Shown: positions 7,050 to 56,400, counted from the whole stretch's first letter. The stretch is 63,492 bases of DNA, filler included, from Reclinomonas americana ATCC 50394 (GCA_048213135.1; 21 parts of 21 records of this genome joined end to end with filler, not necessarily neighbours in it), one strand, 5' to 3'. A program made the numbers and translations. Notes: a model not told the origin generated them from the letters alone.

Positions 7050-7065
7050 GAGAGGAGCGCACGTA

Positions 7066-10368: not shown

Positions 10369-10446
10369 CGCGATCCTCCTCCGGCTGCCCCGTTATCGGG
10401 CGTTGCCGGCATAGTTGCGCTTCGTGACGAGGATGCAAAGCCGCGT

Positions 10447-10714
10447 TCAGCGCAGCGGGTCGTTCTCCAGGAGGATCGGCTTGCCATGCGGCGTCGCTTC
10501 GGCGGCGCGTCCCCAGGCGGCGGCTCGGGCGTCGACGCTCGTCTGCGAGGCGAGACCCTTCTCGATCAGGAGGTGCTCGAGCGCCTCGCACCAGCGCTCG
10601 TAATAATCGGAACCGTCGCGGCAACCGCCATTGGCCAGCGCCTCGCGGATCTCGCCGCCGAGCGCCTGCGCCCATTCGTCGGCGCTGAAGACGCCACGGT
10701 TCTGCAGGGCGACG
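10447..10714 (-). CDS. Nitrile hydratase accessory protein (NHase beta-like), C-terminal fragment; absent from the ORF track
   Basis: Hand translation: VALQNRGVFSADEWAQALG...DYYERWCEALEHLLIEKG...AWGRAAEATPHGKPILLEND. Confidence 0.8.
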
Positions 10715-10814
10715 NNNNNNNNNNNNNNNNNNNNNNNNNNNNNNNNNNNNNNNNNNNNTTAATTAATTAANNNNNNNNNNNNNNNNNNNNNNNNNNNNNN
10801 NNNNNNNNNNNNNN

Positions 10815-11068
10815 TCGATCGTGGCGAGGCTGCCGGCCGGACCACAGGCCTCGATCGCATGGACCTTGCCGCCGGGCTCGTGCACCAGCCAGAAGCCGTC
10901 GCCGCCGATCGCGTTCATATGGGGATAGACGACCGCGATGGTCGCGGCCATGGCGATCATCGCCTCGATCGCGTTGCCGCCCTCGGCGAGGATGGCGCGC
11001 CCCGCTTCTGAGGCGAGACGGTGGGGCGCCGCGACCGCGGCAGAGGCGAAAACCGGAGAATCGGGCAT
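10815..11068 (-). CDS. Gamma-glutamyltransferase family protein, N-terminal fragment
   Basis: APHRLASEAG..IL.EGGNAIEAMIAMAATIAVVYPHMNAIGGDGFWL. Confidence 0.88.
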
Positions 11069-11179
11069 CAGGTTCTTTTCATTCAGGCAGGCGGGACCAT
11101 ATGCCGGTAGGCGCGATTTTGTTGCATGCCGCCGCCGGCTAGGCTAGGCGGTCCGTGCATGGGTTCCGAGGGTAAAAGC

Positions 11180-11419
11180 ATGGCGGCTGGCCGCACCAAC
11201 TGGCGCAACGTGATCATGGTGGTCTCGCTCGCCATCCTGATCGCGGTCGAGATATTCGGCGTCGCGCTGGCGTCCGGCTGGGCGCTGGCTGGCCTGTTCG
11301 AACTCGGACATGGCGTCGCCTATGTGCTGATGGGGTTGTTCTCGGTGCTCGCCGCCTATGGGCTGGTGAATTTCATGCGCCGGGTCGTGAAGGTCGAGCG
11401 CCTGACCCACCGCGGCTGA
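11180..11419 (+). CDS. Small two-TM membrane protein
   Basis: 79-aa hydrophobic ORF, preceded by GAGGG. Confidence 0.6.
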   Translation: MAAGRTNWRNVIMVVSLAILIAVEIFGVALASGWALAGLFELGHGVAYVLMGLFSVLAAYGLVNFMRRVVKVERLTHRG

Positions 11420-11421
11420 GG

Positions 11422-11784
11422 TCAGCCGCAAGGCTTCATCACGACCGGATCGGCTTCTGCCGGCAGCACTTCGTCGAGCGCCCGGCAGCGGCCCTCCACG
11501 CAGATTCGCCAGTCGGCGGTCGCGCCCGAGCGGCGCATCACCACTTCGCGCAACGGCGTTAGATCCGGCTTCCAGCGCCAGAACCCCCCGACCAGTTTCG
11601 CGCCATCGGGCGGGTCCATGCCGGCGCCAGAGCCCTGGATCCGCGCCTCCGCAATGACGAGGCCTTCACGCGTCTCCTGCCAGACCTCTTCCCACAACGA
11701 TTTCTGCACCGAATGCCGCCAGGACAGCGTGATCTCGCTCGCACCGAGCGGGATCAGCAATGCGCCAGCGGCGAGGCAGATCAT
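11422..11784 (-). CDS. DUF1850 domain protein (TRAP-associated)
   Basis: ITLSWRHSVQKSLWEEVW...EARIQGSGAGMDPP; ATGA overlap with the TRAP permease stop. Confidence 0.75.
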   Translation of the reverse strand: MICLAAGALLIPLGASEITLSWRHSVQKSLWEEVWQETREGLVIAEARIQGSGAGMDPPDGAKLVGGFWRWKPDLTPLREVVMRRSGATADWRICVEGRCRALDEVLPAEADPVVMKPCG

Positions 11785-11930
11785 GTCGCCGGACGTGTGT
11801 CGGTCCGAGCCCGCCAGAGATGCTGGCCGAGCATCGCGGCGGCCAGCGCGAAGCCGATCTCGTCGGTGAGCGGGACCGCCGCGACGAGGAAGGCCGCTGC
11901 GATCGCCGCCAGCGCCCGTTCCCACAATGC
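11781..11930 (-). CDS. TRAP transporter fused permease, extreme C-terminus
   Basis: LWERALAAIAAAFLVAAVPLTDEIGFALAA; adjacent to DUF1850. Confidence 0.6.
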   Translation of the reverse strand, partial: ALWERALAAIAAAFLVAAVPLTDEIGFALAAAMLGQHLWRARTDTRPAT

Positions 11931-12030
11931 NNNNNNNNNNNNNNNNNNNNNNNNNNNNNNNNNNNNNNNNNNNNTTAATTAATTAANNNNNNNNNNNNNN
12001 NNNNNNNNNNNNNNNNNNNNNNNNNNNNNN

Positions 12031-12266
12031 GTCTTGCCGACGAAGCGGGCGCCGGCCTCCAGGAACGCCTTCACGATCGGCGCCGTCTTGGTCTTGATCC
12101 CCGACAGCGCCAGCATGGTCGGCGAGCCCGCGCCGGTCGGATAGCCCTTGACGTCAAACAGGTCCTTGACCGCCAGCGTCAACCCGGCGAGCGGGCCTGA
12201 GGAGGCATGTTTCACCGCTGCTTCGGGGTAGGGCACGAAGCAGCGGAACGGATCGTTCTCGATCAT
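12031..12266 (-). CDS. Amidase (amidase-signature family), N-terminal fragment
   Basis: GPLAGLTLAVKDLFDVKGYPTGAG...LEAGARFVGK. Confidence 0.85.
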
Positions 12267-12296
12267 GGTCGTCTCAGATCTCCCCCAATATCCCAA

Positions 12297-13433
12297 TCAG
12301 ATGCCGCGGGCGTCGCCGTCCGAGCGCGGATCATGCGTTGCCTCGACATGACCCTTCTGGTGCTTGACCAGCATGCCGGCATGGCCGAACTGGTCGGAAT
12401 AGGTCTCGCTGTATTCCTCGACGGGGTGGCCGGCCGCAGTGAGGCGCGCCAGCAGCATCGGGTCGAAGCGGTTCTCCAGCTTGAGCGAGATCGAGCCGGC
12501 GCCCCAGGTCCGGCCGAAGAGCCAGCGCGGCGCATCGACCGCATCGGCGACGCCCTGGCCGAAGCGATAGCGCGACAGGATCTGCGCCTGGAATTGCGGC
12601 TGGCCGTCGCCGCCCATCGCGCCATAGCTCAGGATCCGGCCGTCGTCGAAGCGGGCGAGCGGCGGGTTCAGCGTATGGAACGGCTTGCGGCCGGGCGTCA
12701 GCGGGTTGAGCGCCTTCGCATCCAGTGAGAACGAGACGCCGCGGTTCTGCCAGTTGACGCCGGTCTTTGGCAGGATGCAGCCGGAGCCGTATTCCCAGTA
12801 GAGCGACTGGATATAGGACACCGCGAGGCTGGAGCCGTCGATCGCGCCCATCCAGATCGTGTCGCCTTCCCCGGGCCGGAACGGCCAGCCCGCGGCGCGC
12901 TTGCGGTCGATTCTGGCGGCTTCGCGTTCCAGGGCGGTGTCTGTGAGCAGGCTCGCCGGGTCGATTGTCATGAAGGCGGGGTCGGTGATGACCTTGTCGC
13001 GGATGGCAAGGGCCCGCTTCACCGCCTCGACCAGCCCGTGATGGTGGTCGAAGCTCTCCGGCCGGGTGACGCCGAGCTTCTCGAAGATGCCGAGGATCAT
13101 CAGGGCGGTCAGCCCCTGCGTCGGCGGTGGGAAATTGTAGACGATGAGCCCCGGCAGCTTCAGCGACAGCGCCTGGACGGTCCGGGCGCGGAAGGCTTCG
13201 AGGTCGGCCCGGGTGACGGGAGTGCCGAGACGGCCGAGATCCTCGGCGAGCTCGCGGCCGATGTCGCCGCGATAGAAATCGTCGAGCCCGGCATGGGAAA
13301 GCTGCTCCAGCGACGCGCCGAGCGCCGCAGGCTTGCGGCGGTCGCCCGCCTTGGGGCGTTCGCCGCCCGGCCAGAAGAACTCGCTGAAGCCGGGCGCTGC
13401 CTTCACCGCATCGACTTCCTGCGGCCAGGTGCG
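12297..13433 (-). CDS. Gamma-glutamyltransferase family protein, C-terminal part (likely the same gene as 10815-11068)
   Basis: PPPTQG, GDTIWMGAID (nucleophile Thr), IQSLYWEYGSG, QNRG, KPFHTLNP, GAMGGDGQPQ, DPRSDG. Confidence 0.9.
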   Translation of the reverse strand, partial: RTWPQEVDAVKAAPGFSEFFWPGGERPKAGDRRKPAALGASLEQLSHAGLDDFYRGDIGRELAEDLGRLGTPVTRADLEAFRARTVQALSLKLPGLIVYNFPPPTQGLTALMILGIFEKLGVTRPESFDHHHGLVEAVKRALAIRDKVITDPAFMTIDPASLLTDTALEREAARIDRKRAAGWPFRPGEGDTIWMGAIDGSSLAVSYIQSLYWEYGSGCILPKTGVNWQNRGVSFSLDAKALNPLTPGRKPFHTLNPPLARFDDGRILSYGAMGGDGQPQFQAQILSRYRFGQGVADAVDAPRWLFGRTWGAGSISLKLENRFDPMLLARLTAAGHPVEEYSETYSDQFGHAGMLVKHQKGHVEATHDPRSDGDARGI

Positions 13434-18051: not shown

Positions 18052-21000
18052 ACTGAGTCGCACGCTGCCCCAAATCGACCTGGAATACACTCCGCACAAC
18101 TGGGGCCGGTGAAGTTTCCGTTGCAGATGCATCCAAGAGTGGCGTCACAAGTGGAGTTGCTCGGACTGATTGTAAAAGGTGAGAAGTGCGACGACATGCA
18201 TGACATAATGAACAGCGCCGCGAGTGCCATACCATGCGGCACAAATGGCAGGCGGGATTTCACAGTTTGTGCCAGAGTACCCTGCATCACAACCTGCGCA
18301 GAGTAATGTGTGGGAGGCGTGAATGTGGGACCGTATTGGCTATCGGTTGTCGGACTCACTGCAATTCCCTTGATCATCATAGTGGCCGTGGCTGCTGCAT
18401 GTTTTGGTCAAACAAGTCCACTCCAGTCGCAGGTACTTGAATGTTGCGGGACACTACGGGTTCTCCCGCCGGTTAATTCGTCGCAAAGTCGATGCGACAT
18501 CAGATGAGGAAACAAGACTTACCGGATCGCCTTGATTGATCTTGTTGACGTTGCCGTCGAGCGCAGGGAATTCGTAACACCACGGCGTCGGCGTGGTGTA
18601 CGAAGGCGTTGCGAACTGGCACAGCAGGCGCAAGTGCCACGTTACGTCTGAGACACATGTGGTGGTCGTGGTGTCCAGGCCAGTGGAGCCAGCGTCGGCG
18701 CAGACAGTGGCTGTTGACGAGATAGGTGAGCATTCTTGTCGGCAGGAAGCGACGACAATATGCAACGCAACCGGAATCGCGACCCCAAAAGGCCGACTGT
18801 ACAAACACGTAGGAGCCGGTGGGACATGTTGCGCGCACTGCATCACCACCCTGGCAACTGGCGGACACCAAGAAGTCTTGCGGGTGGCAGTCCTCGCCAG
18901 TGTAGCCCGGCAAACAGGTGGCACAATCAGTGGCGGGATCGCGGTTTCCATTGCAGGTGCACATGCCGGTCCCCGTTGCCCCGGCGTTGCATAGGCCACC
19001 GTTGGTACACGGCCGACACTGATTTTCGCACCGGGCCCCCCAGTAATTGCCCTGGCAAACACAGCTTCCGTCACCTCCAAGTCCATCGTTGCATCTGCAA
19101 CAGCGAGGTCAGCCACTGTTGTGCACTTTTTTTGCCGTGCAGCAAGCATACACACCGTGCGCCATTTTGGCACTGACATACACCGCTGCAGGCTGCTCCG
19201 AATCGCCCAGCGAGGCATGTCGTGCAGTTTGTGGCAGCATCAAATCCACTGGTGCATCGGCACACGCCAGTGCCAGTGGAGCCGTCGGAACAGGTGCCTC
19301 CATTGACACATGCAGGACACACTCCGCTGCAGGTGGTGCCGTAGAAACCAGGCAGGCACATGCATGCCCCAGTGCCAGTGAGGCCATCGGAGCAGCTGCA
19401 GATGTGTGTGTGTGTGTCAGCCACCACACGCGCATGTTGTGAAGTCAACGCGACACCGTACCTCGCATTATTGGCGCACGCACATTGGCCAGCGCAGGCG
19501 GTGCCAAAGCGACCAGGAAGGCACTGAGAGCAATTGGATGCAGCAGAGAAGCCAGCGCTGCAGGCGCACTTGCCAGTGGCGTCGCATGTGCCTCCGCCAT
19601 TGGTCGAATTGCAGTCTGTGTTCTTGCATTCACACTGCGTACATCGTGAGCGCCGATTACAGCCTTCGCCTCTTTTTTGCTGCTGCGCACTCACCAATGG
19701 TCCAGCGGTGCCTGCTGGACAGATGCACGTGTTTCCAGTCGCGCTGCATGTGCCGCCATTGCGGCATGTGCACGGAGCGGTGTTGCTGACAGTGATGCTA
19801 GGCGATCGCGCCACCACAATGTAGCCTCCCGTGGGGTAGTTCTGGAAGCCGCGAACCTCCCACGTCGTTCCAAGTACGGCCGAAGTAGGCATGGTCAGCA
19901 TCATGGTGCCTGCAGCGCGTCCACTCAAATACGCCCACTGCGACGAAATAACAAAGTGTCCGCAACACAACAGTCACAGGTGCGGCAGCGAGAGAATGTG
20001 TGCGTACCACGCTGACGGACGAGCTGAGGGCGGTCGATTGCACCAGGTTGATCCAGTCTGTGGTTGTGGTGGCCGGGAATCCACTCCATGTCACCGACAC
20101 GGAGCCGCCCGGTGCAACAGTGGTAGAGCCAACACCCAGCGTGGGCACGTTTGGAGCTGCTCGAACATTTCAGTTGCAAGCCGTTATCGTAAAGATCGAC
20201 ACACAAGCGACCGACTCACTGGTGGCACTGGAAACAATCACTGGCCCAGCAAGCGCGCCACTGTGTTGACGCACAAGTCCGGCAGCATTCTGAAACTCCA
20301 CACGGAAGTAGTAGGTGCCGGCGGCCAGTCCGGTCAGTTGCACAGTACTGGTGATCCCAGGCGCCGCAGCATACGAGCCAACATCGTCCTTGGTGAGAAC
20401 TGCGCTGCCTGTGAGGCTGGTGTACACCATAATCCTGCGCCACACCATCGTCAATGTCTGAGAAGCATTCTACTGCATGAAGATAAGATGTTCACCTGCG
20501 GCGAGACAGCACGCTGCCTCCGCTGTGCGGCGGATGATTCACGGTAATCGCCACGGTCCCAGCAGTGCTGCTGCTAACAACAACGCTCGGTGCGCTGAAC
20601 GCAAACGGTGCAACTGCAATGGTCCGTGAGCAACTGGCAGCACCATCACGCGTGTTGGTGGTGGTGCACGTACCGACAATGTTGGAGCCACTGATGACAA
20701 GTGAAAAGTCTTGCGCACCCAATGGGGTGGTAATGGCGCGCACTCGCACCGAGTACAAGCCGGCGGAAACTGCCGACAGCACCACACGCTCCTGAGTGTG
20801 CGCACCATCCCACGTATCCTAATCATTGTTACTTTCGTGAGCACGGGAAAGAGAGAGATGTCGTCATGGAACTTGTGTGGTGCACTCCACACACACCGTG
20901 AAGCCGAGGAGCTCATTTCCACGCTGCAGCGAGGTTCCAGCGGCTCCAGTGCCGGCAAACACAGCGAGGTCGAGATCAGAGACCAGCGCTCGACTGTTGG

Positions 21001-31778: not shown

Positions 31779-31849
31779 GGGCCCATGGTTTAACGGTAGA
31801 ACATCGGTCTACGGAACCGGAGACCAGGGTTCGACTCCCTGTGGGCCCT
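31779..31849 (+). tRNA. tRNA-Arg(ACG), 71 nt, U73
   Basis: Acceptor GGGCCCA/TGGGCCC, D arm GTTT/GAAC, anticodon loop CT-ACG-GA, T loop TTCGACT; poly-T terminator downstream. Confidence 0.93.
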
Positions 31850-32575: not shown

Positions 32576-32783
32576 NNNNNNNNNNNNNNNNNNNNNNNNN
32601 NNNNNNNNNNNNNNNNNNNTTAATTAATTAANNNNNNNNNNNNNNNNNNNNNNNNNNNNNNNNNNNNNNNNNNNNGCAAAGTCCAACAAACCCGAACAAA
32701 AAGTCCGAAACGGCTGCGTTTTCTCGCTGCGCCCAAACTTCCACGGAACCCGCCCTTTCCGACCGCCGTACCCTCCACGAATG

Positions 32784-32854
32784 GGGCCTCTAGTTTAACG
32801 GTAAAATGTCGGTTTGCAGCACCGAAGTCCGGGGTTCGACTCCCTGTGGGCCTT
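32784..32854 (+). tRNA. tRNA-Cys(GCA), 71 nt, with G1-U72, U6-G67 and a C7/U66 mismatch
   Basis: Cloverleaf; anticodon stem TCGGT/ACCGA, loop TT-GCA-GC; U73; T5 terminator at 32858. Confidence 0.85.
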
Positions 32855-33140: not shown

Positions 33141-33211
33141 GGGCCCATGGTTTAACGGTAGAACATCGGTCTACGGAACCGGAGACCAGGGTTCGACTCC
33201 CTGTGGGCCCT
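33141..33211 (+). tRNA. tRNA-Arg(ACG), identical to 31779-31849
   Basis: 71/71 identity with different flanks; T6 terminator at 33214. Confidence 0.93.
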
Positions 33212-40576: not shown

Positions 40577-43374
40577 ATGGACGTTACTCAGCTCCTCAGC
40601 CTCCTGCGCCTGCGGTATGTGCTGTTGTTGTTGTTGTGGGTTACACTGATGCATGCATGCACTTTTGTCTCATGTTATTTTGTGTGCATGCAGCTGCGAG
40701 CAGCGCTTTGCCAACCCGCGTGCGCTGTTCCGCACGTTTGATCTTGATCGGTGCGTGTGGGCGTGCGTGGGAGTGGGGGAGCGCGTGCGGAGAAAATGTT
40801 GGGTGTGTGTGTGTGCCATGACGCACTCTCACTTTTTTTGCCTTGTGCACGTAGCGCATCGCGTTTGACTCGCAAGCAAATGACCGATGGCGTGGCCACG
40901 TTGCGTCTTCTGACAAGCATGCGCTGTTTAAAGCGAGATTCTGACTCTGGCGCACAGGGTAACTGGTGTGCAGATGAACGACTCACAGGTGTGCCTCTCT
41001 GTCGCTCTTGGTGTGTCTCTGTGTGTGTGTGTGGGTCACTCAAGCGCGCTGCAGGCCAATGAGTTCTACAACTTTTTCGATTTGGACGGTGGGTGTTGTC
41101 GCCTAAGGGTGATTGCATTGCCCGTATCCGCTCATTGTCTCTGTGGATGTATGTGCAGGCGACGGCCAGGTGTCGTACTCTGACTGGATCTCGGTGTTTG
41201 AGCGCAAGGAGACGTTGCGTTTCTGTCTCTCTCTTTTGATTCCTCCTTCTCTGTGCCAAGCTGCTGACTGCGTGATGTGTGTGCAGTGAGATCGTCCGCC
41301 CTGCGTTGCGTCATGTGCTGCAGGTCACGCGCTCGGATGCTGCCGCGATCCTCACTGTTTGCTGCATGTAGATCGGCTGTGGGCTCGGTGACCACGCCGT
41401 CACGCGCGGCTGTGGCAGGCACGGTGAACTCGCCTGGTCTGAAGCTGGCCGCCGCGTCGGGTGCCTCCTCGCCCACCGGCAGCCGCATCTTCCCGACTGG
41501 ATCGCCCGCTCGCCCGGGCTCTGCTGGTCCCTCGTCGGCTCGGTGAGCACATTCTGTGGGAGTGTTTGCATTCCGCGTCGTTGCTCACGTTGCTGCAGCA
41601 CTCCTCGTGACGTTGAGCCGCCGCGCCCCGGTGAGCCGCAGTTGGGTGACATGCTGAAGAAGCTGCGCGATACGCTCGCACGCCGCGGCACCACCACCAT
41701 TGCTCGCCTCGGCAAGGCCTTTGGCATCAGTTGCGCTGCTCACTCACCACACCAAGAGACGCACTTTGCTTGTCTGCACGCTGCTGACGACATTGCTTTC
41801 ATGCAGTCGACGACGATGGTTCCAAGTCGATCGACGTCCCCGAGTTTAAGAAGGTGCTGCGCGAGTACGGCATTGAGCTGTCGAACACCGAGTTCGAGGT
41901 GCTGCGCCGCCACTTTGATCGCAACAACGACGGTGTGATCTCGTACGACGAGTTCCTGTTTGCCATTCGAGTTTCGTGCACGCCGCGTATTTTCCGATCT
42001 CTCAACCCGGGCTGCTGACACTGTGTGTGTGTATGTGATTTGTCGTGTAGGGTGAGCTGAATGCTCGCCGTCGTGACGCCGTGTGGCGCGCGTTCAAGAT
42101 CCTCGACACCAACGGCAACGGTGTCATTGAGTTGGACGACATTCAGGCCAAGTACAACGCCGCCGGTCACCCCGACGTGCGCTCCGGCCGCAAGACCGAG
42201 GCGCAGGTTCTCCGCGAGTTCCTCGACACGTTTGATGCGGGCGAGAAGGACGGTCAGGTGCACCTCGACGAGTTCGAGGAGTACTACTCCGCCGTGAGCG
42301 CCAGCATCGACACGGACGACTACTTTGAGCAAATGATGGACTCGGCGTGGAACCTGCAGCACACGCACACGAAGCGCCAGTTGCGCCACTCTCCATCCAT
42401 CTCCACCCTTTGTTCTTGCAATACGAACCTCACTCTCTTTCTCTTATTCTCTCTCTATCTCTCGTGTAGACAAGGTCGCCGTGCCAACGAGGAGGCGCAG
42501 GCTGCGGCCACGGCTGCCGCTCGCAGTGGCCGTCGCGCACAGCCGACTCGCGCCCCCCTGGCGGTGCTGGAGGTGCTGGAGAACATTCGTCAGGCCATGA
42601 AGCGCCGCGGAACCTTTGACATCGCGTCACTCGGCCGCGCCTTCAAGATCTTCGACGACGACAACTCAGGCACGCTGTCGGCCGACGAGTTTGCCAAGGC
42701 CATGAGCGAGCGTGGCATTGACCTGTACGATGCGGAGCTCACCGAGCTCATGCGATACTTTGACCGCAACGGCGACGGCTTCATCAACTACGACGAGCTG
42801 CTGCTGGGCCTGCGAGTGCGTGACATGCCTGTCAGTCGAGTGCATACATCGACTCGGGTGTGCTCATGCAGTTGTTATTGTTTGACAGGGCGACCTGAAC
42901 GATCGTCGCAAGAAGGCTGTGCGGGAGGCGTACGCACGTCTGGACTTTGACAACAGCGGCGAGGTCGACATGCGCGACATTGTCGGCCGGTACAACGCAG
43001 CGGCGAACCCCGAGGTGCGTGCCGGCAAGAAGACCGAGCAGCAGGTGCTGCGCGAGTTCCTCGACAACTTTGATCAGGGCCAGAAGGACGGTGCGTGGAG
43101 GCATGCCTTGAGCAGAGCGGAGTTTTGATTCTCATCGTTCTCTTGTTGTTTCGGATCGTGCAGGTGTGGTGACGCTGGAGGAGTTTGAGAAGGCGTGTTC
43201 GATGTTGAATTCTGTTGCATTCAAGAGTGCGTCGTTTCCTGACCCTCCTTTTCTGTGATATTGCAGTACTACGCCAATGTCAGCAGCAGCATCGACAGCG
43301 ACGAGTACTTTGAGGCGGTGCTGGAGAGCTCGTGGAGGGATCGCTCGAACCCACGACGTGGCGTGGCTTTCTGA
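40577..43374 (+). CDS. Multi-EF-hand calcyphosin-like protein with a duplicated calcyphosin module
   Basis: EF loops DDDGSKSID, DRNNDGVIS, DTNGNGVIE, DDDNSGTLS, DRNGDGFIN; two copies of YNAA.(H/N)P.VR.G.KTE.QVLREFLD.FD...EF..YY..VS.SID.D.YF; about 14 introns traced. Confidence 0.87.
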
Positions 43375-43584
43375 GCATGCACACTGCTCCACCCCCCGAC
43401 TGTTCGATTGTTGTTCTTTTTCCACCCTCTCCACTCTTTGGTCCTTTCGGCCGCAAAGAAAACACGAAACGCCATTCTTCGATGCTGACAGGCAGAGTAA
43501 AATGGTGATGCGCACACACACACATACGTCCCTCCGTCCATCGCTGTCCTGGCGGAAGATTGTCGATTGATCCTCATTCCTCGC

Positions 43585-43830
43585 ATGCGGAGCGACGTGC
43601 GTCAGGTGTACAAGACGCTGCTCTTCATGCTCCGCGAGTACCCGGGCGGCGTGAGTGGCAACCGGGAGCGCCTGCAAGCGGCCTTCCGCAAGCAGAGCGC
43701 GTTGAGCGGCGAGAAGGAGATCTGCGCTGCTGTGGATCGCGGATGGTTTGTGGTGCGTGAGCTGGAGGCACTGCATTACCTCAAAAAGTACCGCACCCTG
43801 CGGCAGAGATATGCCACCGAGGAGTCATAG
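43585..43830 (+). CDS. LYRM5: LYR-motif protein 5 / ETF regulatory factor 1
   Basis: VRQVYKTLLFMLREYP...RG.FVVRELEALHYLKKYRTLRQRY. Confidence 0.85.
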   Translation: MRSDVRQVYKTLLFMLREYPGGVSGNRERLQAAFRKQSALSGEKEICAAVDRGWFVVRELEALHYLKKYRTLRQRYATEES

Positions 43831-43889
43831 TGTTGTAAAACAAAAAAAAAGCCACGTTGCAGCATTCATTGTGTGTGATGTGTGATCAG

Positions 43890-45132
43890 CTAGCTTCTTG
43901 ACATCCTCCGTGGTCTTCTTAGCGGTGAGCTGCCGACCTCGAGTGGGACTTGATACATGTCCTTGATTTCGGTTGCGTCGAGCTCGCTCTCGGAGGAGGA
44001 TGCCGACGGTGACGAGCACGAGTCGCGGTCGAGATCGCGGAAGCTGTTGGATCGTGAGCTGCCGCGTGAGCTGGCGTACTCGATCACCGACACTGACTCG
44101 GAGAAGCGCACGCTGCGACTCAGTAGGGACGACTGGCGAGAGGAGGAGTCAGTGGCGAGAGGGGAAAGGGAGCTCGAGGTTCTGTTTGAAACAGACTCAC
44201 CGATCTCCTGACGCTGGTGAGCGACGGGTACTTGGCGGGCATGGGACTCCTGGAGCCTCGCCTTGAGCTGAGGATCGACTCTGGTTGCGTGCCACCCTCG
44301 TTGTCGTGCTGACGCGGCGGGTGGCCTCGTGTCAATTCCGAGAGTGGTGCGGCGGTTCTGTGATGTGGAGGGAGTGAGCGCTGTGTGGTTGATTCGCAGA
44401 CTGACACAAACACACACACACGTGCGTACGCAACGAATGCTTTGGTTTTCTGGGCACACGTGCCTGCCCGCTGCCTTCCAGCGCCGCTGCGGCTCTGTCG
44501 ATGCCGTTGCTGACCACATCGGTCAGGGGAGCTGACCGGCTCGGACGCCGCCTTGGTGACGACGAAAAGTTACCGACCAGTGCCGCCACGCTCTGCTGTT
44601 GCTGTCGTGGTGACTGCGAGACCGCCAGTGCAGTCGACGATCTCCTTCCTCGCGTTGGCGAAGCAGCCGCACGAGGCGATCCGTGCCCCTCCGCAGCCCC
44701 ACCAATGATACGTGCAGCCGCGGCCTCGGCCGCCATCTGCCTCACCGACGCCTTGGGCGAACCCAGCGCACTTCCATCCGTGTACAGTGCCTCGTCGGTC
44801 ACATTGTAGGCAGATCCACGCGCAGCAGTCACCGCGGCCATGATCTCCTCCATGTCGGCATCGGTGCTCCCATCGTCCATCAGCTTGTTGCGGGCCACGA
44901 TGGAGTTGCGCTTCATGGAGCGTGTGGATCCTGGTGAACGTATGGCCGCTGCGGCTGCGGGTGATCCCACACGAGGAGAGTTGCTGCGCGAGGCCTCCTT
45001 TGCCTGCTGGTGTAGTACACGAGCGGCCAGTGACACCATGGTCCCATGGGCAGACTTGGTCGCCGGCAACAACGATGCGGTTGCTGCTGCGGCTCCTGGA
45101 GGCGCAACCACGACTGAAGCCCCACAGCCCAT
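43890..45132 (-). CDS. Ser/Ala-rich protein with N-terminal MGCGAS dual-acylation motif
   Basis: ATG at 45132 gives MGCGAS; two long exons. Confidence 0.5.
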
Positions 45133-45526
45133 CGACACTCACACACACTCTCTCTCCCCTGTGCACTCGAGATATCAGTTTTGTCGTTTCTGTTTGTGCA
45201 GGGGCACGTGCCCGTGTAATCAAAGTTTTTCAACATTGCTCACGCACCTGTTCGCTGGTGTTTTCTCGCTGATGGCGCGCGCGTTGTGTGGCACTTGAGT
45301 TTGCAATTCGTTCTGCGCACGACTCAAAAAACGAGCGACTTTTCAGGCACACTGAATGCCTTCTCTCGCTGTGTGCAATAAACTAATCGAAAAACCGACA
45401 TTAGACGAAAAAGGAAAGAATTTCGTTTGTGTCATTCTTTTCATTCGTCCTCCGGTTGCATGCGCTCGCTCGCCACCCGCGCACATACGTCCTTCTCTCT
45501 CTTTCTCTTTTCTTCGTCGGCTTCGA

Positions 45527-47192
<1,666 letters not shown>

Positions 47193-47300
47193 CTGTGTGT
47201 NNNNNNNNNNNNNNNNNNNNNNNNNNNNNNNNNNNNNNNNNNNNTTAATTAATTAANNNNNNNNNNNNNNNNNNNNNNNNNNNNNNNNNNNNNNNNNNNN

Positions 47301-49505
47301 TGCGTTTCCATGTCTTTGCAGTGCGTCTCATCACGCGTTTTTGTGTATCGTGCAGGCACTTGCCAGTCTGACCAAGAAGTACGAGACCATCACCGACTCG
47401 TTGATGTCGATCGAGCTGCTGGTCGACGGCAAGATGACAGGACGCAACCCCCTGCTGCAGTCGTACTATGGGCACTGGGAGAAGCGTGTCTTCCGTGCAC
47501 TCTGCAAGGTGGGCTGTTTGTTTTGGCAACCTCTCCACCTCCTGTTTCCTCACGGCCAACCCCCCCCCGCTGCGTACAGATGGTCATCAACAGCCTGAGC
47601 AAGATGCACCAGTACGTGAGACGTAGCAGCAAGGAGCTGCCGCTGTTCCGTGCTGTGCTCGAGCTGAGTCCGCCCGATGTGTTGGTGGAGCCGACAAAGG
47701 AGGACATGGAGCGAGTGCTTCGCCGCATTCCGGACAAGATCATTGAGAGCACGAAGCAGTTTGTGCGATGGATGCGCGGCACTTGCATTCCGGTGACGCA
47801 GGGCCAGATCGAGGCCGAGAACATGGGCGACGATGACGACACGCTGGCCGCAGTCACCTTCTTCCCCGACATCCAGTTGACGCCGCAGATCTCCAAGCGC
47901 CGCCGCGTGGTGCAAAAGTCCATGTCGTACGCTGTCAATGCCATTGAGCAGATGCGTGCCAAGTGGAAGAAGCACTTTTCGTTGTTCTGGACGCAAGACA
48001 GGGTGAGTGGTGGTGGTGGCAGTGTGTCGTGATCTTGCGATGGTGACCTGATGCGTGACTCGACTGCAGAACATGACGGCCGACAACTACAACATGGAGA
48101 TTCGACAGGCCATTGTCGAAGGCCGCAAGTCGCTGGGCGAGTCGGCCGATCTCGAAAAGGATCCACCTCTCATTCCGCTCACGGTTTGTGGATGTCTTTC
48201 TTTTCTTTTGTGTGTGCTTGTCGTCGTCTCACAGTCGCTCTTGTGTAGCAATTCGAGAGTGAGTTCCTGGATCTGGAGGGCTTCTCGCACCAACTCGATC
48301 ACTACTCCAAGATCGAAGTGGTCAATTTCATCAGCGTGGACCGTGAGAAGCTGATGGAGGCCATTCACGCGCAAGTGCGCAGCTGGATTGTCGCCTACGG
48401 TTGGTTGGACGTTGAAAGAGTGGCTCCTTTGTCCTGCTTTCGTAGTGTTGCTCACTGCTCTCATTGGTGTAGGCAAGCATGTGCGTGATGCAGCACAGGC
48501 GCTGGCGGTGTTTATCGAGGACCAGATCCGCGAGTTCAGCGACAATCTCGCCCGACCCACCAACGAGGTGGACGAGCTGGAGTTTGTGCTGAATGTGTTG
48601 GCCGGTGTCAAGGAGCGCGCCATGGAGGTCGAGATGAAGTTCAAGAACGTGCTGGATGCGTACGACTTGCTCAACGCGTACAATGTACCGTTTGACGCGG
48701 AGGAATTCGAGTTCGCCGTGGCGCTGCCCGACAAGTGGATGCAGCTGTTGGACGACGCCGAGGATTTGCAGAATCGACTGGCACCCATCAAGGAGCAATT
48801 CAAGGATGTTGCGTCTGCCAAATGCCTGTCGCACGCTGACTTGTGTGCGTCACGTGCCTGACCTATGTGATTTGTTGGTTTCGTGCAGACAACTCGCGTC
48901 GAGGCGAGCAAGTTCCACGCCGAAGTCAAGGCGTTCCGGCAAAAGTTCTTCGAGCACGGCCCGGGTGTGGGTGAGGTCAATCTCGATGGTGGACTGGAGA
49001 AGATGGAGTGGTACCGCACCGAGTTGGCCCGCCTGCAAGAACTCAAGTGCGTCCCACACTCAACATACAGTGTGTGTGTGCGTGCGTGCTTGCAACTCAC
49101 TGTCGTGTATCGGTTGTCGTGAATCAACAGGGACAAGAACAGCAAGTCGGAGCGCCTGTTTGACCTCGAGGTCACCGAGTATCCCGAGTTGATCGAGGTG
49201 TCCAACAACATGGAGAAGCTCAGCAAGATGTACGACGTGTACGCCAGCTGGAAGGTGTGTGTCTCCTCTCTCATTCCTGTCCAATCCGCGCCTATTCGGA
49301 CGCTGATGAATGCCGTTTCTCTCCCACGATGTGCAGAGCACCCTTGAAAAGTGGTCGCGCACGCTGTGGTCCGAGGTCAACATTGAGGAGATGATGCGCG
49401 GCACGCAGTCGTTCATCTCCAACATGAGCAAGAGTGCCGATCTGAGACCACTGCGCACGCACCACATTTACAAAGCCATTGACGATGCCATCAAAGCGTG
49501 CGTTG
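47301..49505 (+). CDS. Axonemal dynein heavy chain tail fragment, DNAH10 (inner arm I1 alpha)-like
   Basis: YYGHWEKRVFRAL..MVINSL, PLFR..LEL.PP, ESTKQFVRWMRGTC, F...GPG....LD.GL, ERLFDLEVTEYP, WSRTLWSEVN. Confidence 0.8.
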
Positions 49506-49605
49506 NNNNNNNNNNNNNNNNNNNNNNNNNNNNNNNNNNNNNNNNNNNNTTAATTAATTAANNNNNNNNNNNNNNNNNNNNNNNNNNNNNNNNNNNNNNN
49601 NNNNN

Positions 49606-49980
49606 CGCCGAACGGAAGAAGAAGATGGACTCGGCAGTCGCGCGAATGGCACGAGCAGTGCGCTCATCCTCATCCTCATCCTCGTCCGCCTGCTCCGCGA
49701 ACAAATCGTCGTGCTCCTCCGCTCCTCTGCTTCGCCGAATCGCCGCAGCCTCCAGCGCCGCCACCTGCCGCATCAGCTGCTGCTCAGCGGCCGCGCGATG
49801 CTCCTCCTCTTCCTCATCCATCTCCAAGCGCAACGTCAGCGCCGACCGCGACGATCGCCGTGCCGAAGTCGGCCGCGACGAGTGCGGCGTCATGATCGGA
49901 GGCGTGCGCTCCACACTCAGACACGCTGTGGCCGCTGTCGATGCGCCCGGCGGGGTCGCCGCCGGTGGTGTGCTGCTCAT
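49606..49980 (-). CDS. Uncharacterised protein, 5' fragment
   Basis: ATG at 49980; acidic, coiled-coil-like frame; divergent from TM9SF. Confidence 0.35.
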
Positions 49981-50290
49981 AATCTCAGATCCAAACCACA
50001 CACGCGTGCCACCCACAAAAATCTCGGACTGTCACTCAAGCAATGTTCGAAAAAGAGCTCACAACCGTCCAAATCACGCACTCCGCCGTCGAAATGGACT
50101 CGATGAAATGTTGAATGCATCACACAAAGTCACTGTTATCACCATCGTCCTCTCTCATGCTGCATGCCCTCCTGTGCAGCGGCATGTCGGGAAACAAAGA
50201 GAATGTGGGGAAAACCGCACTTTTTTTTTTTGATGAGGCGGACAGTGGGGGCTCGCTGCAACGCGATCTGTCCTCTATTGTCTTACGCAA

Positions 50291-51647
50291 ATGCACAGAC
50301 CGCCATTGCTGCTGCTGCTTCTGCTGGTGGCAGTGGTCGCTATAGTGGTGGTGCCAGCAGCTGCGCAGTTGCCGGGCATGTCTGCGCGCTCATATGCAGG
50401 CAAGTTCACTTTCGTTTTTTCGCCACTGTCGTCATGCACACACACACACGAGTGCACTCTCACTTGCACATGCACACACATTGTGAGAGAGCGAGAGATG
50501 GTAGCATGTGTGCTGTGTGGCAGAGAGTGTGTGTGAGAGAGCGATGGCCATGGCAACACCCTGCGTGTGTGTCACACGTGTCTTGGCGCGCGCTGTGTGC
50601 GCTTGTGCGTGTGCGAGTGTGATCATTCACACTTTGAGCGTTCGCGGTCGCAGACGATGAGGAGCTCGACTTGAAAGTCAACGCGTTGACATCGTCCAAG
50701 GTGCGTGTCTCTCTCCCTCGATCGAGTTGTCCTCACACACACACTCTCTCTCTCTCACTGCACAGACACAACTGCCGTACGAGTACTACACTCTGCCGTT
50801 CTGCCAGTTGCGTCGATGCTGCGGCGCTTGTCATTCTCAATCAACGCTGCTGACTTGCACATTCGCAGACCGAAGGATGGCATTCGTCAGGCGTCGGGTG
50901 CGGACAGAGTGCAGTGGGGGGAATCGCTCCTGCATGTGCTGTTGGCTGACTGTTGCTGGCGATACTCACAGAGAACTTGGGCGAGTTGCTCTTTGGCGAT
51001 CGCATCGAGAGTTCGGCGTACACGGTTGCGTTGTGGAGCGCGTTCTGGGTGTGTGAATCGCAAGCGATCTTCTAAATCGCGTGCACACAGCTCAAGATGA
51101 TGCAAAAGAAGACATGCAGCATCCTGTGCGATCCGACATACGACGCCACGCAGATGGCGGCCTTTGCACAGCGCATTCAGGAGGAGTATCGTGTGAACAT
51201 GTTGCGTGGCGGCGTCGATTCGATTCGGTGAGTGGCTGGCTGGCAATTCACTTTCACTGGCGCAGGTTGTTGGACGGGTTGCCGGCGTCGGTACTCAAGG
51301 GCAGCGGCACTTACGAGATCGGCTTTGAGCTGGGATTCCTCGGCGATCCAGAGGTTACTCGCTTGCCACGCGCGTGTTTGTGTGCGTGTGTGTTCCGTCA
51401 TCCTCACGCCCGTGGCACCGCAGCTGTACCCCAACACAAAAGCCAATGTGCCATACATTTATAATCACCTCGATTTCACCGTCAAGTACCACACTGAACC
51501 GTCGTTCACGGGCAAGCGTGTGGTGGGCTTCGAGATCAAGCCCGTCAGGTATGTGCTCGGTTTTTTCCTCTTATCATCCGATCACGACACACTCACCGAC
51601 CATTGTGTCGCCAGTGTCAAGCACGAGCCTGATCCAGAAAAGCCCCT
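50291..51647 (+). CDS. Transmembrane 9 superfamily (EMP70/nonaspanin) protein, luminal part
   Basis: Signal peptide, LPGM, LKVNALTS.KTQLPYEYY.LPFC, ENLGELLFGDRIESS.Y, EEYRVNMLLDGLP, YIYNHLDF.VKYH, RVVGFEIKP.SVKH. Confidence 0.92.
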
Positions 51648-51747
51648 NNNNNNNNNNNNNNNNNNNNNNNNNNNNNNNNNNNNNNNNNNNNTTAATTAAT
51701 TAANNNNNNNNNNNNNNNNNNNNNNNNNNNNNNNNNNNNNNNNNNNN

Positions 51748-51839
51748 TCGTGTGTGTGTGTCGTCGTCGTCGTCTCGTTCTCGTCGTGTCGTCGTCGTCC
51801 GTTCCGTTCGTCGTCGTCGTCGTGTGTGTGTGTCGTCGT

Positions 51840-51932
<93 letters not shown>

Positions 51933-51960
51933 CTGGTCAGTGCGTGTGTGTGTGTGTGTG
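51748..51960. repeat. (TG)n/(TCG)n compound microsatellite
   Basis: Direct reading. Confidence 0.95.
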
Positions 51961-52016
51961 GCCGTGCATAGGGGGGAGTGCGCGCGTGGCAGTGTGTGTC
52001 TTTCTGTTCACACGTA

Positions 52017-52605
52017 CCCGATTAGCCAACAAGGCGGCTTCCTGCTCCTTGGTGACCTTGAAAAAGCCTGCAAGGCTTGTCACGTTGATCTTGAGGGTGT
52101 GTATGCGGTCCCTCACGAAGCCGTCGGTCTGCCGCACCGAGGCGTTCCTTCCGGACGCAGAGGAGATGATAACCACATCACCATTCTTCAGCGCGCCTGT
52201 CTCCAGGACGGCCTGCGCCACACGCGGCAGCGGATAGTGCACGACGTACACGCTGGACGGCTGTGTGCATGCATGACACGTGGTCGTTGAGTGACGGATA
52301 GCGCGTGAGTGGTGTGCGACAGGACGACTTCTCACCGTGTCCTCCGGATCCCGACTGGCACAGTCGTGAAGCATGAAGGACATCGCCCACTGAGTCCTCG
52401 GCTCACCGCCAACGCGGCCCGCAGCCGCATTGGGACCGACGTTGATCTGCTTCGTCTCCAGTGCGGAGACGCGACCACAGACGACAAAGCTCCGGAACGC
52501 AAAGGTCGCGTTGAGCTCGTTGAGCGGCGTACGGCGTTGCAGAACGCTTTCCAGCAGCGGTGCATCAGCCGTGTTGAAGGAGAAAGGGGCAGAAGATTCG
52601 CTCAT
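52017..52605 (-). CDS. Uncharacterised protein, possibly an OB-fold N-terminus (3'-truncated)
   Basis: FVVCGRVSALETKQI...MSFMLHD...LKNGDVVIIS beta-rich pattern. Confidence 0.35.
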
Positions 52606-52774
52606 AGGAGAAGGAGAAGAGAAATAGTAACCAAGCGTGCGTTTCGAGTTGCGTTTTATGACCGCGAATCGGAGGAATACGGTACGTACGGTAGAATGCG
52701 TTTCGCATGTCCTATGTCTGTGAAAACTTCCGATGTGACCGCGAAACGGAGAAGGTTGTATACAATACTATGTA

Positions 52775-52854
52775 AACGGAAACCTGTCATCCGGAGAAAC
52801 CATGAAAAACGAACAACGGAAACCTGTCATCCGGAGAAACCATGAAAAATGAAC
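52775..52854. repeat. Two tandem 40-bp direct repeats (39/40 identical)
   Basis: AACGGAAACCTGTCATCCGGAGAAACCATGAAAAA(C/T)GAAC at 52775 and 52815. Confidence 0.9.
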
Positions 52855-53465
52855 TTTCGTGACAGGTTGCACCTCCATTCCCGGCAGATTTCAGCAACAT
52901 GCTTCCTGTGCCCGATGCCCAGGTCCGTTCAGCGTGCCAGCTCACCATTCGATGGCCACGAATGTGTTCCACCACCTCCCGAATATACTTCCGAGTTACT
53001 CTGAACTTCCATCGAGCAAGAGGCTTCACGAAATTTGGACCAAAAACCCGCCTGGGGACCCCGTATGCCGGGTTCCGTAATTCCCCCGGTCAGTCCGATC
53101 CTGCTGCCCGTTCACCCGTCACCCATACACCCGGCGGGTGCAATGGCTGGGTGGACAATTGCGCTCGCACTCCCACGGACGTAACGCACCGACGGACGCA
53201 CACGTGTACACACGCACTCGGCCGCAGGCGGGGGGTTTTATTGAAGACCCTTAACAAGCTGGCAAGCGCAGCGCGCAGCACGCAAGAGGTGAGAGGCAGT
53301 GTGCGTGTGCGCACGTGTGTGTTGATCCTCAATGACCACAGTACTAGTTCTTGTAGTGCACGTATAAGTGAGCGAAAAGATGTGTTTGGGGGGTGTGTGC
53401 ATGGAAATGTCTCGCACTCGCGCGCCTCTAACTTATATTTGCGCGCTCGCACAGCTTCAGCAAAC

Positions 53466-56400
53466 ATGGCGACTGCGCCTGCTGGGTTTTTGTTGCTCTC
53501 GGCGGGCCCGGTGGAGCACCCACTGCCCATGGATCCGTGGCAGCAAGCTATCGACGCGCTCGCCGACGAAGCGCAAGCATCGCCAAGTTTGCATGCCTTG
53601 CTTCTTGCGCAGCGACTGGCCAATGTTGGCAGCCCAGCGCCAGATGACTTCAAGCTCCTTTGCGAGATCGGCGCAGATGACTTGCGCCCTCTACTTGAGC
53701 GGAAAGCACGTCGTGGGCACAGGCCTGATCATCAGTGCGCATTCGCGTTCGAACCATACATCCGCTCTCTTTTCGTTACGTGCTTGTCGTGTCGATGCCT
53801 CGGCCTCTCTCTCTCTTGCTCACATACTTGTGAAACATGCAGCTTCATCGACTGCTGGTGAGCAAAGATCAATTCATGGCGTCTCTCTCACCGGAAAGGC
53901 GTCGCATTTGCGAGGACTTCCAGAGGGACGTTGTTGTGTATGAAACGAGAAATGCAGATGTATTGTTGAGCGAGGAAGGTGAGTGATGAGTGAGGAGAGC
54001 TGTACGCTCCCTGCGGTTGCCATTCAGAGCTTAATTACTTCGCACCACAGTCTCCGCCATGCACGCCGCACTCGTTTTTACATATGTGGGAGAGAAGACT
54101 TCACGTGGTCGACCCGACAAGGAGCGCAGATTCGATCTGCCGGCCACCAGCGACGCGCGGCTGATGTTTCTCCTCCTCCTCGTCGTGCAGTTGCGAAGTG
54201 ATCGATCGGTTCTTCTTCTCTGCCGCAAGACTACTCACCGTCCTGGCTGTGCGTGCATGCCCAGTGCGCCCAGCTTGTTCGCTTCGACGGACCTCGCACA
54301 CACGACTGCACTGCTAGGCACTGTGCAGGAGGCATTCAAGAGGCTCTCAGCAGGATCCCGCGCTGCAGCTGGCCATGGAAAGAAACCGGCGCTGGTGGTG
54401 CCCTCTCACGTCCAGGACTTTGCCACAACCGCGTCAATTTGCCTCCTACGGTGGAACGTCACGCAGCAACAAGTTTTCTGTGTGCCACCCGAGACTCTGG
54501 CAGCTGTGGATTTGGTGGCAGAGGTCGGCCGCCTCATGAGTCGAGCAGGGGATGGCATTGTGGTCGGCTTGGCGCAAGCCATGAAATCCAAGTTGTCGCT
54601 TCGAAAGTGCGCGCGGATGCCTAAAGTTGTTGTAGGTGATGTCTCGTGATAATTTACATGCCTTTGTGTTTCCGCAGCTATTTCTCCACCCCAATTTCGC
54701 TTGTGGTGAAGGAGATGCTGCAAGTCATTCGCGACTCGGACCTCTCCCGACTCAGGTATGTTGAACTTTATGTAGACAACACTGTGTAGAGTTACATCTA
54801 ACTGTTCACGCTGGCGTGCAGTGATCATGACGTGGATGTCGTCCACCTGTACGTGCGCGACGAGACGGAGATCGACACAAAGGAAAAGGGGCGCAAGTTG
54901 TTCGAGTCTGGCGCTGTGGGACACTCCTTCGCGGGCTTGTGCGACAAANNNNNNNNNNNNNNNNNNNNNNNNNNNNNNNNNNNNNNNNNNNNTTAATTAA
55001 TTAANNNNNNNNNNNNNNNNNNNNNNNNNNNNNNNNNNNNNNNNNNNNGACAAGAGGATGACTTGCTCCTTTGCAATCACTCACCACACCGCGCACCTGT
55101 GGCTATGGTGCACAGATGACGCGGACCTCGTTGTTCTGCGTGAAGCCCAGCAGAATGCACTGTTCTTGTCGTTCTCTTTCGCCTACATCGGCCAGGAACC
55201 TGCAAGTGCCTACGCCGATGTAAACGACTCTGATGCCGTGAAGCGGTTTCTCGACCACCTACCACAAGCACAGTTGAGGTCAGGGAGCGACCCGTTTGCC
55301 GAAGCGCAACTGAGCCTGGCCACGTTGGCATTCCAGAATGGGCATGCTTCCTTTGCCAGGCTGCTGCACGTGATGACGGATGTGATGCTCTTCGATGGTG
55401 TGTGCTATGCGTGTGTGTTGACTGTGTGTTTGGGAGTGACAGGGACAGGACAGCTGACTATGGTGGATTGATTTCACAGAATTCTACAGTTCATTCGAGG
55501 CCGGTGACGTGGACGCAGCTGAAGCTGTCGTCGCACATGTCGATCGCCTGCGACGGTCGTCCGCCAAGCTGGCGGAGAAGCTGCACGACGCGCTGCAAGA
55601 CTGTCGTTACGTTTCTCTCTGCCATTGGCCAATGCGAGATTTTTCGTTTTTCTCACTCTTTCTCTTTTCGCTTTCTCTCTCCTGTATGCTGCACAGGTGA
55701 CCAATGCAGGAAGCTGGTGTGCGCGCTCTTCCCGGCCGCACCATCAAAGAAGAAAAAGGAGCCCGTAGGTGAGTGACACGTCCGTCAAGCGCGCGCGCGA
55801 AACCTGCATGGCGCACCACTCATACAGCACGTTGCGCTTACACAGCGAGAGCACCTGCTGCCGTGCCGGCGCCGGAGTCCTCCAGCTGCATCCTGAGCAT
55901 CTCCCATCCTGCGGTGCACGCCCCATTGCAACGACTCGCTGACTCGCTGCGGAGATGGGCTGCCCGACTGGCGGCGAAGTGTGTCACTGGTCAGACTTGG
56001 AAGGCTGCGTGTCGTGCAGACGCTAAGGCGTTGATTGAGTCGTGCTCCGCGTGCGTTGCCGATCTGTGCCGTGGCGCCTCAGTCCCGCTCTCCTTGGTGG
56101 CCGTTGCAGAGGCGTTGGAGAACGTCGTCGATCGGCACCAATGCGTGCGGGGGCCAGCTGCCGAGGAGAAGAAGGACGAGGAGGAGGATGAGGTGGAGAA
56201 TGAGGAGGAAGACGACGACGACGAAGTGGTTGACGAGGAAAGATCCATTCGAGGCTGTGCGTGAACCTTGCACTCTTGCGTGTGCCTCACACGCTCAGCT
56301 CACTGATTCTTTGTGCATGGTGTGTGCAGTGCTGTTGGCGCTCATGCGGTGCCTCCAACAGGANNNNNNNNNNNNNNNNNNNNNNNNNNNNNNNNNNNNN

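Follow-up and report, generated by a model that had tools for sequence, protein, structure and literature searches.

Why do some introns follow a G as the last base of the upstream exon, when others in the same genes do without it? The question is raised by a stretch of 63,492 bases from Reclinomonas americana ATCC 50394, the whole of which is referred to here as the window. Its introns begin with two formats of 5′ splice site, or donor: an ordinary one, G/GTNNGT, mostly GTGCGT, GTGAGT or GTGTGT (a slash marks the exon–intron boundary), and a shifted one, H/GTTGCGT. A preliminary description of this DNA had proposed that donor class is coupled to the last exon base (position −1), and the coupling is confirmed in the window. 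Of the 36 ordinary donors, 26 have G at −1; of the 26 shifted donors, 2 do (Fisher p = 3.3e-7; calls with a signal of at least 11, strand-filtered, eukaryotic part). The association therefore held in the contingency test of −1 base against class that the same description had suggested, run here on this window. As the hypothesis arose on the same sample, all p-values are post hoc.

The classes were defined by intron bases alone. Ordinary donors (U) have G at +5, shifted donors (S) have GTT with G at +6 and none at +5, and a third group (N) has neither. Introns were called in a chain dynamic programme that combines codon log-odds with signal models for donor, branch site and acceptor. The donor model had two components over intron positions +3 to +9 and a training set of 34 introns that were clear by eye; since its seeds included both classes, the class frequencies cannot be taken as unbiased. 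Exon bases were excluded from the signal score throughout, and the −1 base therefore cannot sway the choice of donor. A negative control on the prokaryote-like contigs at 1-13.5 kb returned 15 false introns, every one with a signal below 10, hence the cut-off of at least 11. Where chains on the two strands overlapped, the weaker was dropped, which cleared the known antisense false calls in the Rpt4 gene (46080, 46721 and 46891). The filtered calls on the eukaryotic contigs comprise 36 ordinary, 26 shifted and 6 N donors and 1 GC donor. The shifted class accounts for 26 of 69 called introns and, in the three gene models that were checked, for 7 of 21. We put its share at between a quarter and a third of donors. 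Motif-free intron discovery was tried with candidate lists based on coding alone, with expectation-maximisation on clusters and with a signal-free dynamic programme; most of the GT..AG pairs that it produced were spurious, and it was abandoned.

The contrast at −1 is stable to the way in which the calls are divided. Before the strand filter, G was found at −1 in 29 of 41 ordinary and 2 of 26 shifted donors (the latter at 18771, minus strand, and 44284, plus strand; Fisher p = 2.4e-7), and in the three codon phases in turn the counts were 9/13 versus 0/8, 13/15 versus 2/7 and 7/13 versus 0/11. It persists at all thresholds tried (p from 2e-7 to 8e-6) and is present both inside 40900-51201 (8/10 versus 1/11, p = 0.0019) and outside it (18/26 versus 1/15, p = 1e-4). 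Set against a phase-matched null of exonic GT, the ordinary class has an excess of −1G (26 observed, 10.2 expected, P < 1e-5), and shifted donors lie at or slightly under background (2 observed, 6.0 expected, P = 0.03). The extra T is by itself irrelevant and the position of the downstream G is what matters, because GTT donors that retain +5G (GTTGGT, GTTTGT) carry −1G in 8 of 9 cases. The requirement for an exonic G is limited to the +5G class. Within the ordinary class there was no signal of compensation by −1G, which accompanies GTGCGT in 6 of 10 cases and other hexamers in 28 of 40 (p = 0.71). Among all 30 GTTGCGT heptamers in the window, donor or not, 5 are preceded by G, near the 21% seen before any GT. 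A model-free count that set these 5/30 beside GT[AG]NGT (88/505 preceded by G) was discarded as uninformative, since matches to the ordinary motif are mostly (GT)n repeats or non-donors.

Could the coupling have arisen from errors in intron calling, or from testing a small sample post hoc? The junctions are read from sequence alone, hypothesis and test share one window, and the caller did make the antisense false calls in Rpt4 that were later removed. Against this stand the exclusion of exon bases from calling, a prokaryote-like control without any call at a signal of at least 11, and the recurrence of the effect in two disjoint parts of the window. In addition, 19 GT junctions fixed by protein colinearity repeat the contrast, with −1G in 1 of 6 shifted donors and in 12 of 13 other GT donors (p = 0.0029). 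Colinearity and the replication in separate parts of the window make an error of calling unlikely, and we consider an artefact of either kind very improbable. The checked junctions come from four genes. The first encodes a multi-repeat EF-hand protein (40.4-43.4 kb, plus strand), with the following introns:

41730 to 41806, plus strand: shifted-class intron, atca/GTTGCGCTG (A/GTTGCGC), in the EF-hand repeat gene; junction GKAFGI-I-DDDGS colinear with the second repeat and with the homologues P0129 and P0141.
41971 to 42050, plus strand: shifted-class intron, tcga/GTTTCGTGC (A/GTTTCGT), the paralogue of the intron at 42816; junction ...AIR/GELN colinear with homologues.
42816 to 42888, plus strand: ordinary intron, gcga/GTGCGTGAC (A/GTGCGT), at the equivalent site in the second repeat; junction ...GLR/GDLN colinear with homologues.
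43091 to 43163, plus strand: ordinary intron, gacg/GTGCGTGGA (G/GTGCGT); called, and colinear with homologues.
43193 to 43266, plus strand: GC-AG intron, gaag/GCGTGTTCG (AAG/GCGTGT); 7 fewer alignment gaps than with the GTTGCAT donor chosen by the caller at 43214.

The junctions at 41730, 41971, 42816 and 43091 also fit the internal repeat of the gene itself. The introns at 41971 and 42816 follow a common CGA/ exon end and differ in class; donor class was therefore switched after the internal duplication.

The second gene, for a DNAH10-like axonemal dynein heavy chain (47.3-49.5 kb, plus strand), contributes one shifted junction, and the third, for a TM9SF protein (50.6-51.6 kb, plus strand), contributes seven that fit three homologues, among them A/GTTGCGT, G/GTTGCGT and T/GTTGCGT:

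48808 to 48888, plus strand: shifted-class intron of the dynein gene, ggat/GTTGCGTCT (T/GTTGCGT); the flanking exons correspond to residues ...1299 and 1300... of PDB chain 8j07_k8.
50701 to 50765, plus strand: TM9SF intron, caag/GTGCGTGTC; homology.
50807 to 50868, plus strand: shifted-class TM9SF intron, gcca/GTTGCGTCG; homology.
50898 to 50971, plus strand: TM9SF intron, tcgg/GTGCGGACA; homology.
51025 to 51090, plus strand: shifted-class TM9SF intron with −1G, an exception, cacg/GTTGCGTTG; homology.
51201 to 51265, plus strand: shifted-class TM9SF intron, acat/GTTGCGTGG; junction RVNM/LLDGLP colinear with homologues.
51354 to 51423, plus strand: TM9SF intron without +5G and +6G, agag/GTTACTCGC; homology.
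51549 to 51614, plus strand: TM9SF intron, tcag/GTATGTGCT; homology.

The preliminary description had named two shifted donors as exceptions with −1G. The one at 51025 on the plus strand is supported by homology, for replacing its G/GTTGCGT with the G/GTGTGT at 51049 adds 8 gaps against each of the 3 homologues; the other, at 18771 on the minus strand, was found by the caller and is predicted only.

The fourth gene encodes the proteasome ATPase Rpt4 (47.2-45.5 kb, minus strand). Its spliced product shows 79% identity to the homologue P0037 over 357 columns with 2 gaps, and this alignment fixes seven junctions (G/GTCTCT twice, G/GTGAGT, G/GTGTGT, G/GTAATG, G/GTACGC and G/GTTCGC), with an eighth, T/GTTGCGT, lying past its end:

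47004 to 47073, minus strand: Rpt4 intron without +5G and +6G, caag/GTCTCTTGT; homology.
46681 to 46766, minus strand: Rpt4 intron, cgag/GTGAGTGGC; homology.
46503 to 46567, minus strand: Rpt4 intron without +5G and +6G, caag/GTCTCTTTG; homology.
46312 to 46378, minus strand: Rpt4 intron, ccag/GTGTGTTTT; homology.
46143 to 46212, minus strand: Rpt4 intron with canonical GTAA start, ggag/GTAATGCGG; homology.
45869 to 45940, minus strand: Rpt4 intron, attg/GTACGCCCA; homology.
45681 to 45740, minus strand: Rpt4 intron with +5G, gaag/GTTCGCACA; homology.
45540 to 45630, minus strand: shifted-class intron, the last of Rpt4, agat/GTTGCGTGC; signal 17.1, beyond the end of the homology alignment.

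The donors at 47073 and 46567 on the minus strand had been described as carrying an exonic AG, and the spliced alignment bears this out: both read AAG/GTCTCT. All four homology-checked donors with neither +5G nor GTT/+6G (GTCTCT twice, GTAATG and GTTACT) keep AG at the exon end.

What, then, distinguishes the two formats on the intron side? The shifted motif is the more uniform, with G at +4 in 20 of 26 donors, C at +5 in 24 and T at +7 in 22. Preferences match at an offset of one base (ordinary +3G in 61% and +7G in 73%; shifted +4G in 77% and G, C or T at +8), and GGTGCGT, the ordinary format including −1G, is a single base apart from GTTGCGT. The ordinary donors (41 at 13.5-63.5 kb) have A at +3 in 3 and at +4 in 8, G at +7 in 30, and A at −3 in 20, with no preference for A at −2; this profile differs from the MAG/GTRAGT consensus. 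Apart from their donors, the introns of the two classes are alike in length (70 versus 68 nucleotides), composition and branch motifs, and a single gene can hold both. When 77 called introns were compared all against all by blastn, the only matches were short, low-complexity CA/CT stretches, with the classes intermingled. An introner-like or mobile intron family was ruled out, with no similarity along the introns by blastn or inspection by eye. U12-type introns have a 5′ RTATCCTT and a TCCTTAAC-like branch site. This identity was likewise rejected, the donors here being GTTGCGT and the branch sites CTGAC, CTCAC or CTCAT as in the ordinary class. Sliding of introns by one base is unsupported, because the first base of the 3′ exon does not differ between the classes.

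The same genes contain both 5′ splice-site formats. For how each is read we propose an account to which we give about an even chance. Ordinary donors would be read in the usual register, with the exonic −1G and the intronic +5G and +6T contributing to recognition, and −1G would be selected accordingly. H/GTTGCGT would be read one nucleotide downstream of the cleavage site: the intron's own G+1 would take the place of the exonic G opposite C9 of U1 small nuclear RNA (snRNA), U+2 would be a tolerated mismatch, U+3 to U+7 (UGCGU) would fill the places of +2 to +6, and +6G and +7T would replace +5G and +6T. Cleavage would stay 5′ of the sole available GU, set later by U6 and the catalytic core, and the last exon base, falling outside the critical contacts, would be free to be A, C or T. 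Read in the canonical register, GTT/+6G donors should be nearly dead, lacking both −1G and +5G. Because both guanines are absent, shifted donors break −1G/+5G compensation unless they are read one base downstream: the classical expectation that −1G is near-invariant without +5G fails for GTT/+6G donors (2/26) and holds for the 4 checked N donors. Cleavage at a GU one base upstream of the register, the trait expected of shifted reading, was found at six GTT junctions by protein colinearity. Three points we infer: U1 snRNA as the reader, a register that is shifted and not bulged, and a compensatory function.

Does pairing with U1 bear this out? Pairing was computed with the textbook U1 5′ end, AUACUUACCUG (as in PMC4856993), which may not be that of the organism's own U1. 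For the shifted donors the mean number of pairs rises from 4.19 in the canonical register to 6.39 in the shifted register and 6.52 with a bulge. Nearest-neighbour energies for the same donors (n = 26) are −0.21, −0.71 and −0.51 kcal/mol, respectively, as against a mean of −6.46 kcal/mol for ordinary donors (−7.83 with −1G and −2.92 without it, n = 10). The preliminary description had held that G+1 takes over the U1-pairing role of the missing −1G. The coupling and the pair count speak for this part, and the energy gain of about 0.5 kcal/mol speaks against it. Its further claim, that introns could sit at non-G junctions without losing U1 pairing, is not demonstrated, as the energies of shifted donors are close to zero in every register. 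By energy, the finding comes close to the outcome that had been named as refuting the idea, no pairing gain in the shifted register.

Several results thus weigh against a shifted register. (i) The gain from shifting, some 0.5 kcal/mol only, leaves these donors far below even ordinary donors without −1G. (ii) The bulge register equals the shifted one in pair count. (iii) C stands at +5 in 24 of 26 shifted donors, where it would mismatch U1 position 5; ordinary donors have C at the corresponding +4 in 9 of 41 cases. A plain one-base shift does not explain the near-invariant +5C. (iv) The exon side of shifted donors behaves as unconstrained coding sequence and offers no positive evidence of a shift. 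Their profile at −3 and −2 does fit the ordinary profile at −4 and −3 better than that at −3 and −2, by 19.2 bits (permutation p = 0.0016), but we dropped this as positive evidence, a phase-matched coding null scoring −98.0 bits compared with −100.7 for the shifted ordinary profile. (v) The paralogous introns at 41971 (A/GTTTCGT) and 42816 (A/GTGCGT) have equal −1 bases and unequal classes; since they share an A/ junction across classes, the −1 base allows a donor class and does not determine it.

The second of these points raises an alternative in which U1, and later U6, pairs with G+1 and U+2, leaves the surplus U at +2/+3 unpaired as a loop and pairs with GCGU in the role of +3 to +6, the lack of −1G being incidental. 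Its pair count matches, its energy is similar, the pairing of U6 with the +6 G would be preserved, and among 201,541 human 5′ splice sites there are 68 with a predicted +2/+3 bulge (PMC4856993 Table 3). A bulged site would still gain from a −1G through the added stack on C9, however, and weaker sites would need it more. The preference for −1G that this predicts is not seen among the shifted donors (2/26, with 6.0 expected, versus 26/36 in the ordinary class). The shifted register is favoured over the bulge because the bulge would still profit from −1G and no such preference is seen; we rate the bulged reading as rather unlikely.

The third point and the low energies direct attention to the reader itself. 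UUGCGU could be recognised without any exon contact, by a divergent or second U1 complementary to UGCGU, by another snRNA segment or by a protein. The tightness of the shifted motif would be accounted for, textbook U1 yields almost no pairing energy, and ordinary donors also avoid A at +3 (3/41) and +4 (8/41). As an illustration, a hypothetical U1 with G5 and C6 gives shifted donors −5.8 kcal/mol in the shifted register, which is then the best register in 20 of 26. On the other side, the 5′ end of U1, of which ACUUACCUG is the standard form, is very widely conserved. Ordinary donors show no preference for C at +4 (9/41), and an Rfam scan of the window found three tRNAs only and no snRNA gene; such a reader would be pure inference. 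A separate reader of this kind seems to us unlikely, if somewhat less so than a bulge. A bolder version of our own proposal, held with equally little confidence, is that a U1 or second U1 variant whose 5′ end, altered at positions 5-6, is complementary to UGCGU underlies a genome-wide two-register donor code. In that case GUUGCGU would be bound strongly, in a register one base downstream of the cut, and roughly a third of introns would be freed from the exonic-G requirement.

The fourth and fifth points can also be read historically. The −1G may mark older introns or those that entered AG/G proto-splice sites, GTTGCGT introns having arisen otherwise, by insertion of a T or by drift at non-G sites, with no role of −1 in recognition. 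The exon side of shifted donors, statistically like unconstrained coding sequence, and the pair at 41971 and 42816, a class change at a fixed A/ junction, agree with such a history. It nevertheless leaves unaccounted for both the function of donors without −1G and +5G and the uniformity of their motif. Moreover, no common intron sequence or target-site duplication points to a mobile family, and a plain change of G+1 to T in G/GTGCGT would shift the frame. We regard history alone as improbable. Returning to the two-format account, the observation on which it is built is well supported within the window, and the mechanism is plausible, with precedent, and unproven.

The remaining shifted-class introns are known from prediction. 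Those at 40900-44399, and the exception on the minus strand, are as follows:

40900 to 40957, plus strand: shifted-class intron, ccac/GTTGCGTCT; predicted only, signal 19.8.
41214 to 41286, plus strand: shifted-class intron, agac/GTTGCGTTT; predicted only, signal 23.6.
41305 to 41371, plus strand: shifted-class intron after an 18-nucleotide micro-exon, ctgc/GTTGCGTCA; predicted only, signal 17.0.
42380 to 42469, plus strand: shifted-class candidate of 90 nucleotides, gcca/GTTGCGCCA, in frame and stop-free, in a non-conserved linker; all intron signals present.
44284 to 44399, plus strand: shifted-class candidate with −1G, 116 nucleotides, tctg/GTTGCGTGC; weakly supported, chain score 17.
18711 to 18771, minus strand: shifted-class intron with −1G, an exception, tccg/GTTGCGTTG; predicted only, signal 16.9, single-intron chain.

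The predicted micro-exon (41287-41304, plus strand) is flanked by two GTTGCGT introns and lies in a part of the gene without homologue support. Retention of the candidate at 42380-42469 also leaves an open frame, so coding does not demand its removal. Further predicted shifted donors, with their −1 bases, fall in two spans:

13966 to 37308: 14048 minus (C), 14494 plus (T), 16423 minus (T), 17469 plus (T), 21693 minus (C), 23242 minus (A), 25545 minus (C), 27740 plus (T), 29937 minus (A), 33435 minus (A), 36101 plus (A) and 37308 minus (T).
49765 to 55696: 49834 minus (C), 53775 plus (C) and 55606 plus (C).

About 21 small contigs make up the window, strung together by linkers of the form N44-TTAATTAATTAA-N44 (for example at 47201-47300 and 49506-49605) that have stop codons in each of the six frames; order in the chain does not imply genomic adjacency. 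Genes are cut at these linkers: Rpt4 is without its N-terminus, and neither the dynein nor the TM9SF gene is complete. The eukaryotic DNA, from 13.5 kb on, has very short introns (median about 70 nucleotides), short exons and moderate codon bias, and its introns carry a branch-like CTGAC, CTCAC or CTCAT 10-30 nucleotides 5′ of YAG. The contigs at 1-13433 show long intron-free open reading frames with a third-position GC of about 0.88 and look prokaryotic in character; one product resembles, by eye, a LysR-type regulator. They may be contaminant DNA or DNA of an associated bacterium joined to the eukaryotic contigs. The three tRNA genes lie on the plus strand, all within 1.5 kb, in a cluster that spans the linker at 32576-32675, and two of them have equal Rfam scores:

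31779 to 31849, plus strand: tRNA gene.
32784 to 32854, plus strand: tRNA gene.
33141 to 33211, plus strand: tRNA gene.

Flexibility of the U1 register has so far been shown for a small minority of human sites, by engineered suppressors. If between a quarter and a third of a genome's introns are GTTGCGT introns without either anchoring guanine, that genome would be a natural test on a large scale. It would bear on the uncoupling of the cleavage site from the U1 register, on how U6 handles the extra base and on the relaxation of the exonic G constraint on coding sequence. Splice-site models confined to −3 to +6 and a single register would give GTTGCGT donors very low scores and could lead to wrong annotation of such genomes.

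How does this donor class compare with known systems? Recognition of shifted-register 5′ splice sites by U1 was reportedly described by Roca and Krainer in 2009 (in NSMB), and Roca et al. are said to have worked on the bulge register in 2012. Shifted and bulge +2/+3 registers are both demonstrated for rare human sites (PMC4856993, PMC9311317). A full-text literature search covering GTTGCGT-type donors, non-human cases of shifted or bulged registers and oddities of protist donors found no such donor class described. A register shift is thus a known mechanism from rare human sites, and its use as a major donor class appears to be undescribed in the literature searched. Like the human shifted-register sites, as far as the sources describe them, the donors here have GU and an extra U, followed by the +2 to +6 sequence one base late, are cut at the upstream GU and, in the proposed reading, have every U1 pair moved by one position. 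Unlike them, they are frequent (26/69) and carry UGCGU, with a C that mismatches textbook U1 and a marginal gain in energy, whereas the human sites are rare, of the UAAGU type and pair well with U1. With bulge +2/+3 sites (Tan et al. 2016, PMC4856993) they share GUU followed by the downstream consensus and an equal pair count, but the bulge keeps the pair of −1G with C9 and the class here lacks −1G enrichment.

In human donors without +5G, −1G is almost invariant (Burge & Karlin 1997; Carmel et al. 2004, as summarised in PMC8283771). Donors here with neither +5G nor GTT/+6G conform to this rule, all keeping AG/, whereas GTTGCGT donors, without both guanines, violate it in the canonical register; the direction of the coupling found here is the reverse of what the rule would lead one to expect. 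Finally, the nearest analogue in a protist, Ostreococcus lucimarinus, is reported to have GTGCGTG donors off chromosome 2 and GTRNGT donors on chromosome 2, and the authors ask whether snRNA changes accompany such divergent signals (Irimia & Roy 2008, PMC2483917). In both cases a single compact, GC-rich protist genome has two types of donor consensus. In the account given for Ostreococcus, however, the classes are split by chromosome and intron density with no one-base offset, whereas in Reclinomonas americana they stand side by side in the same genes.

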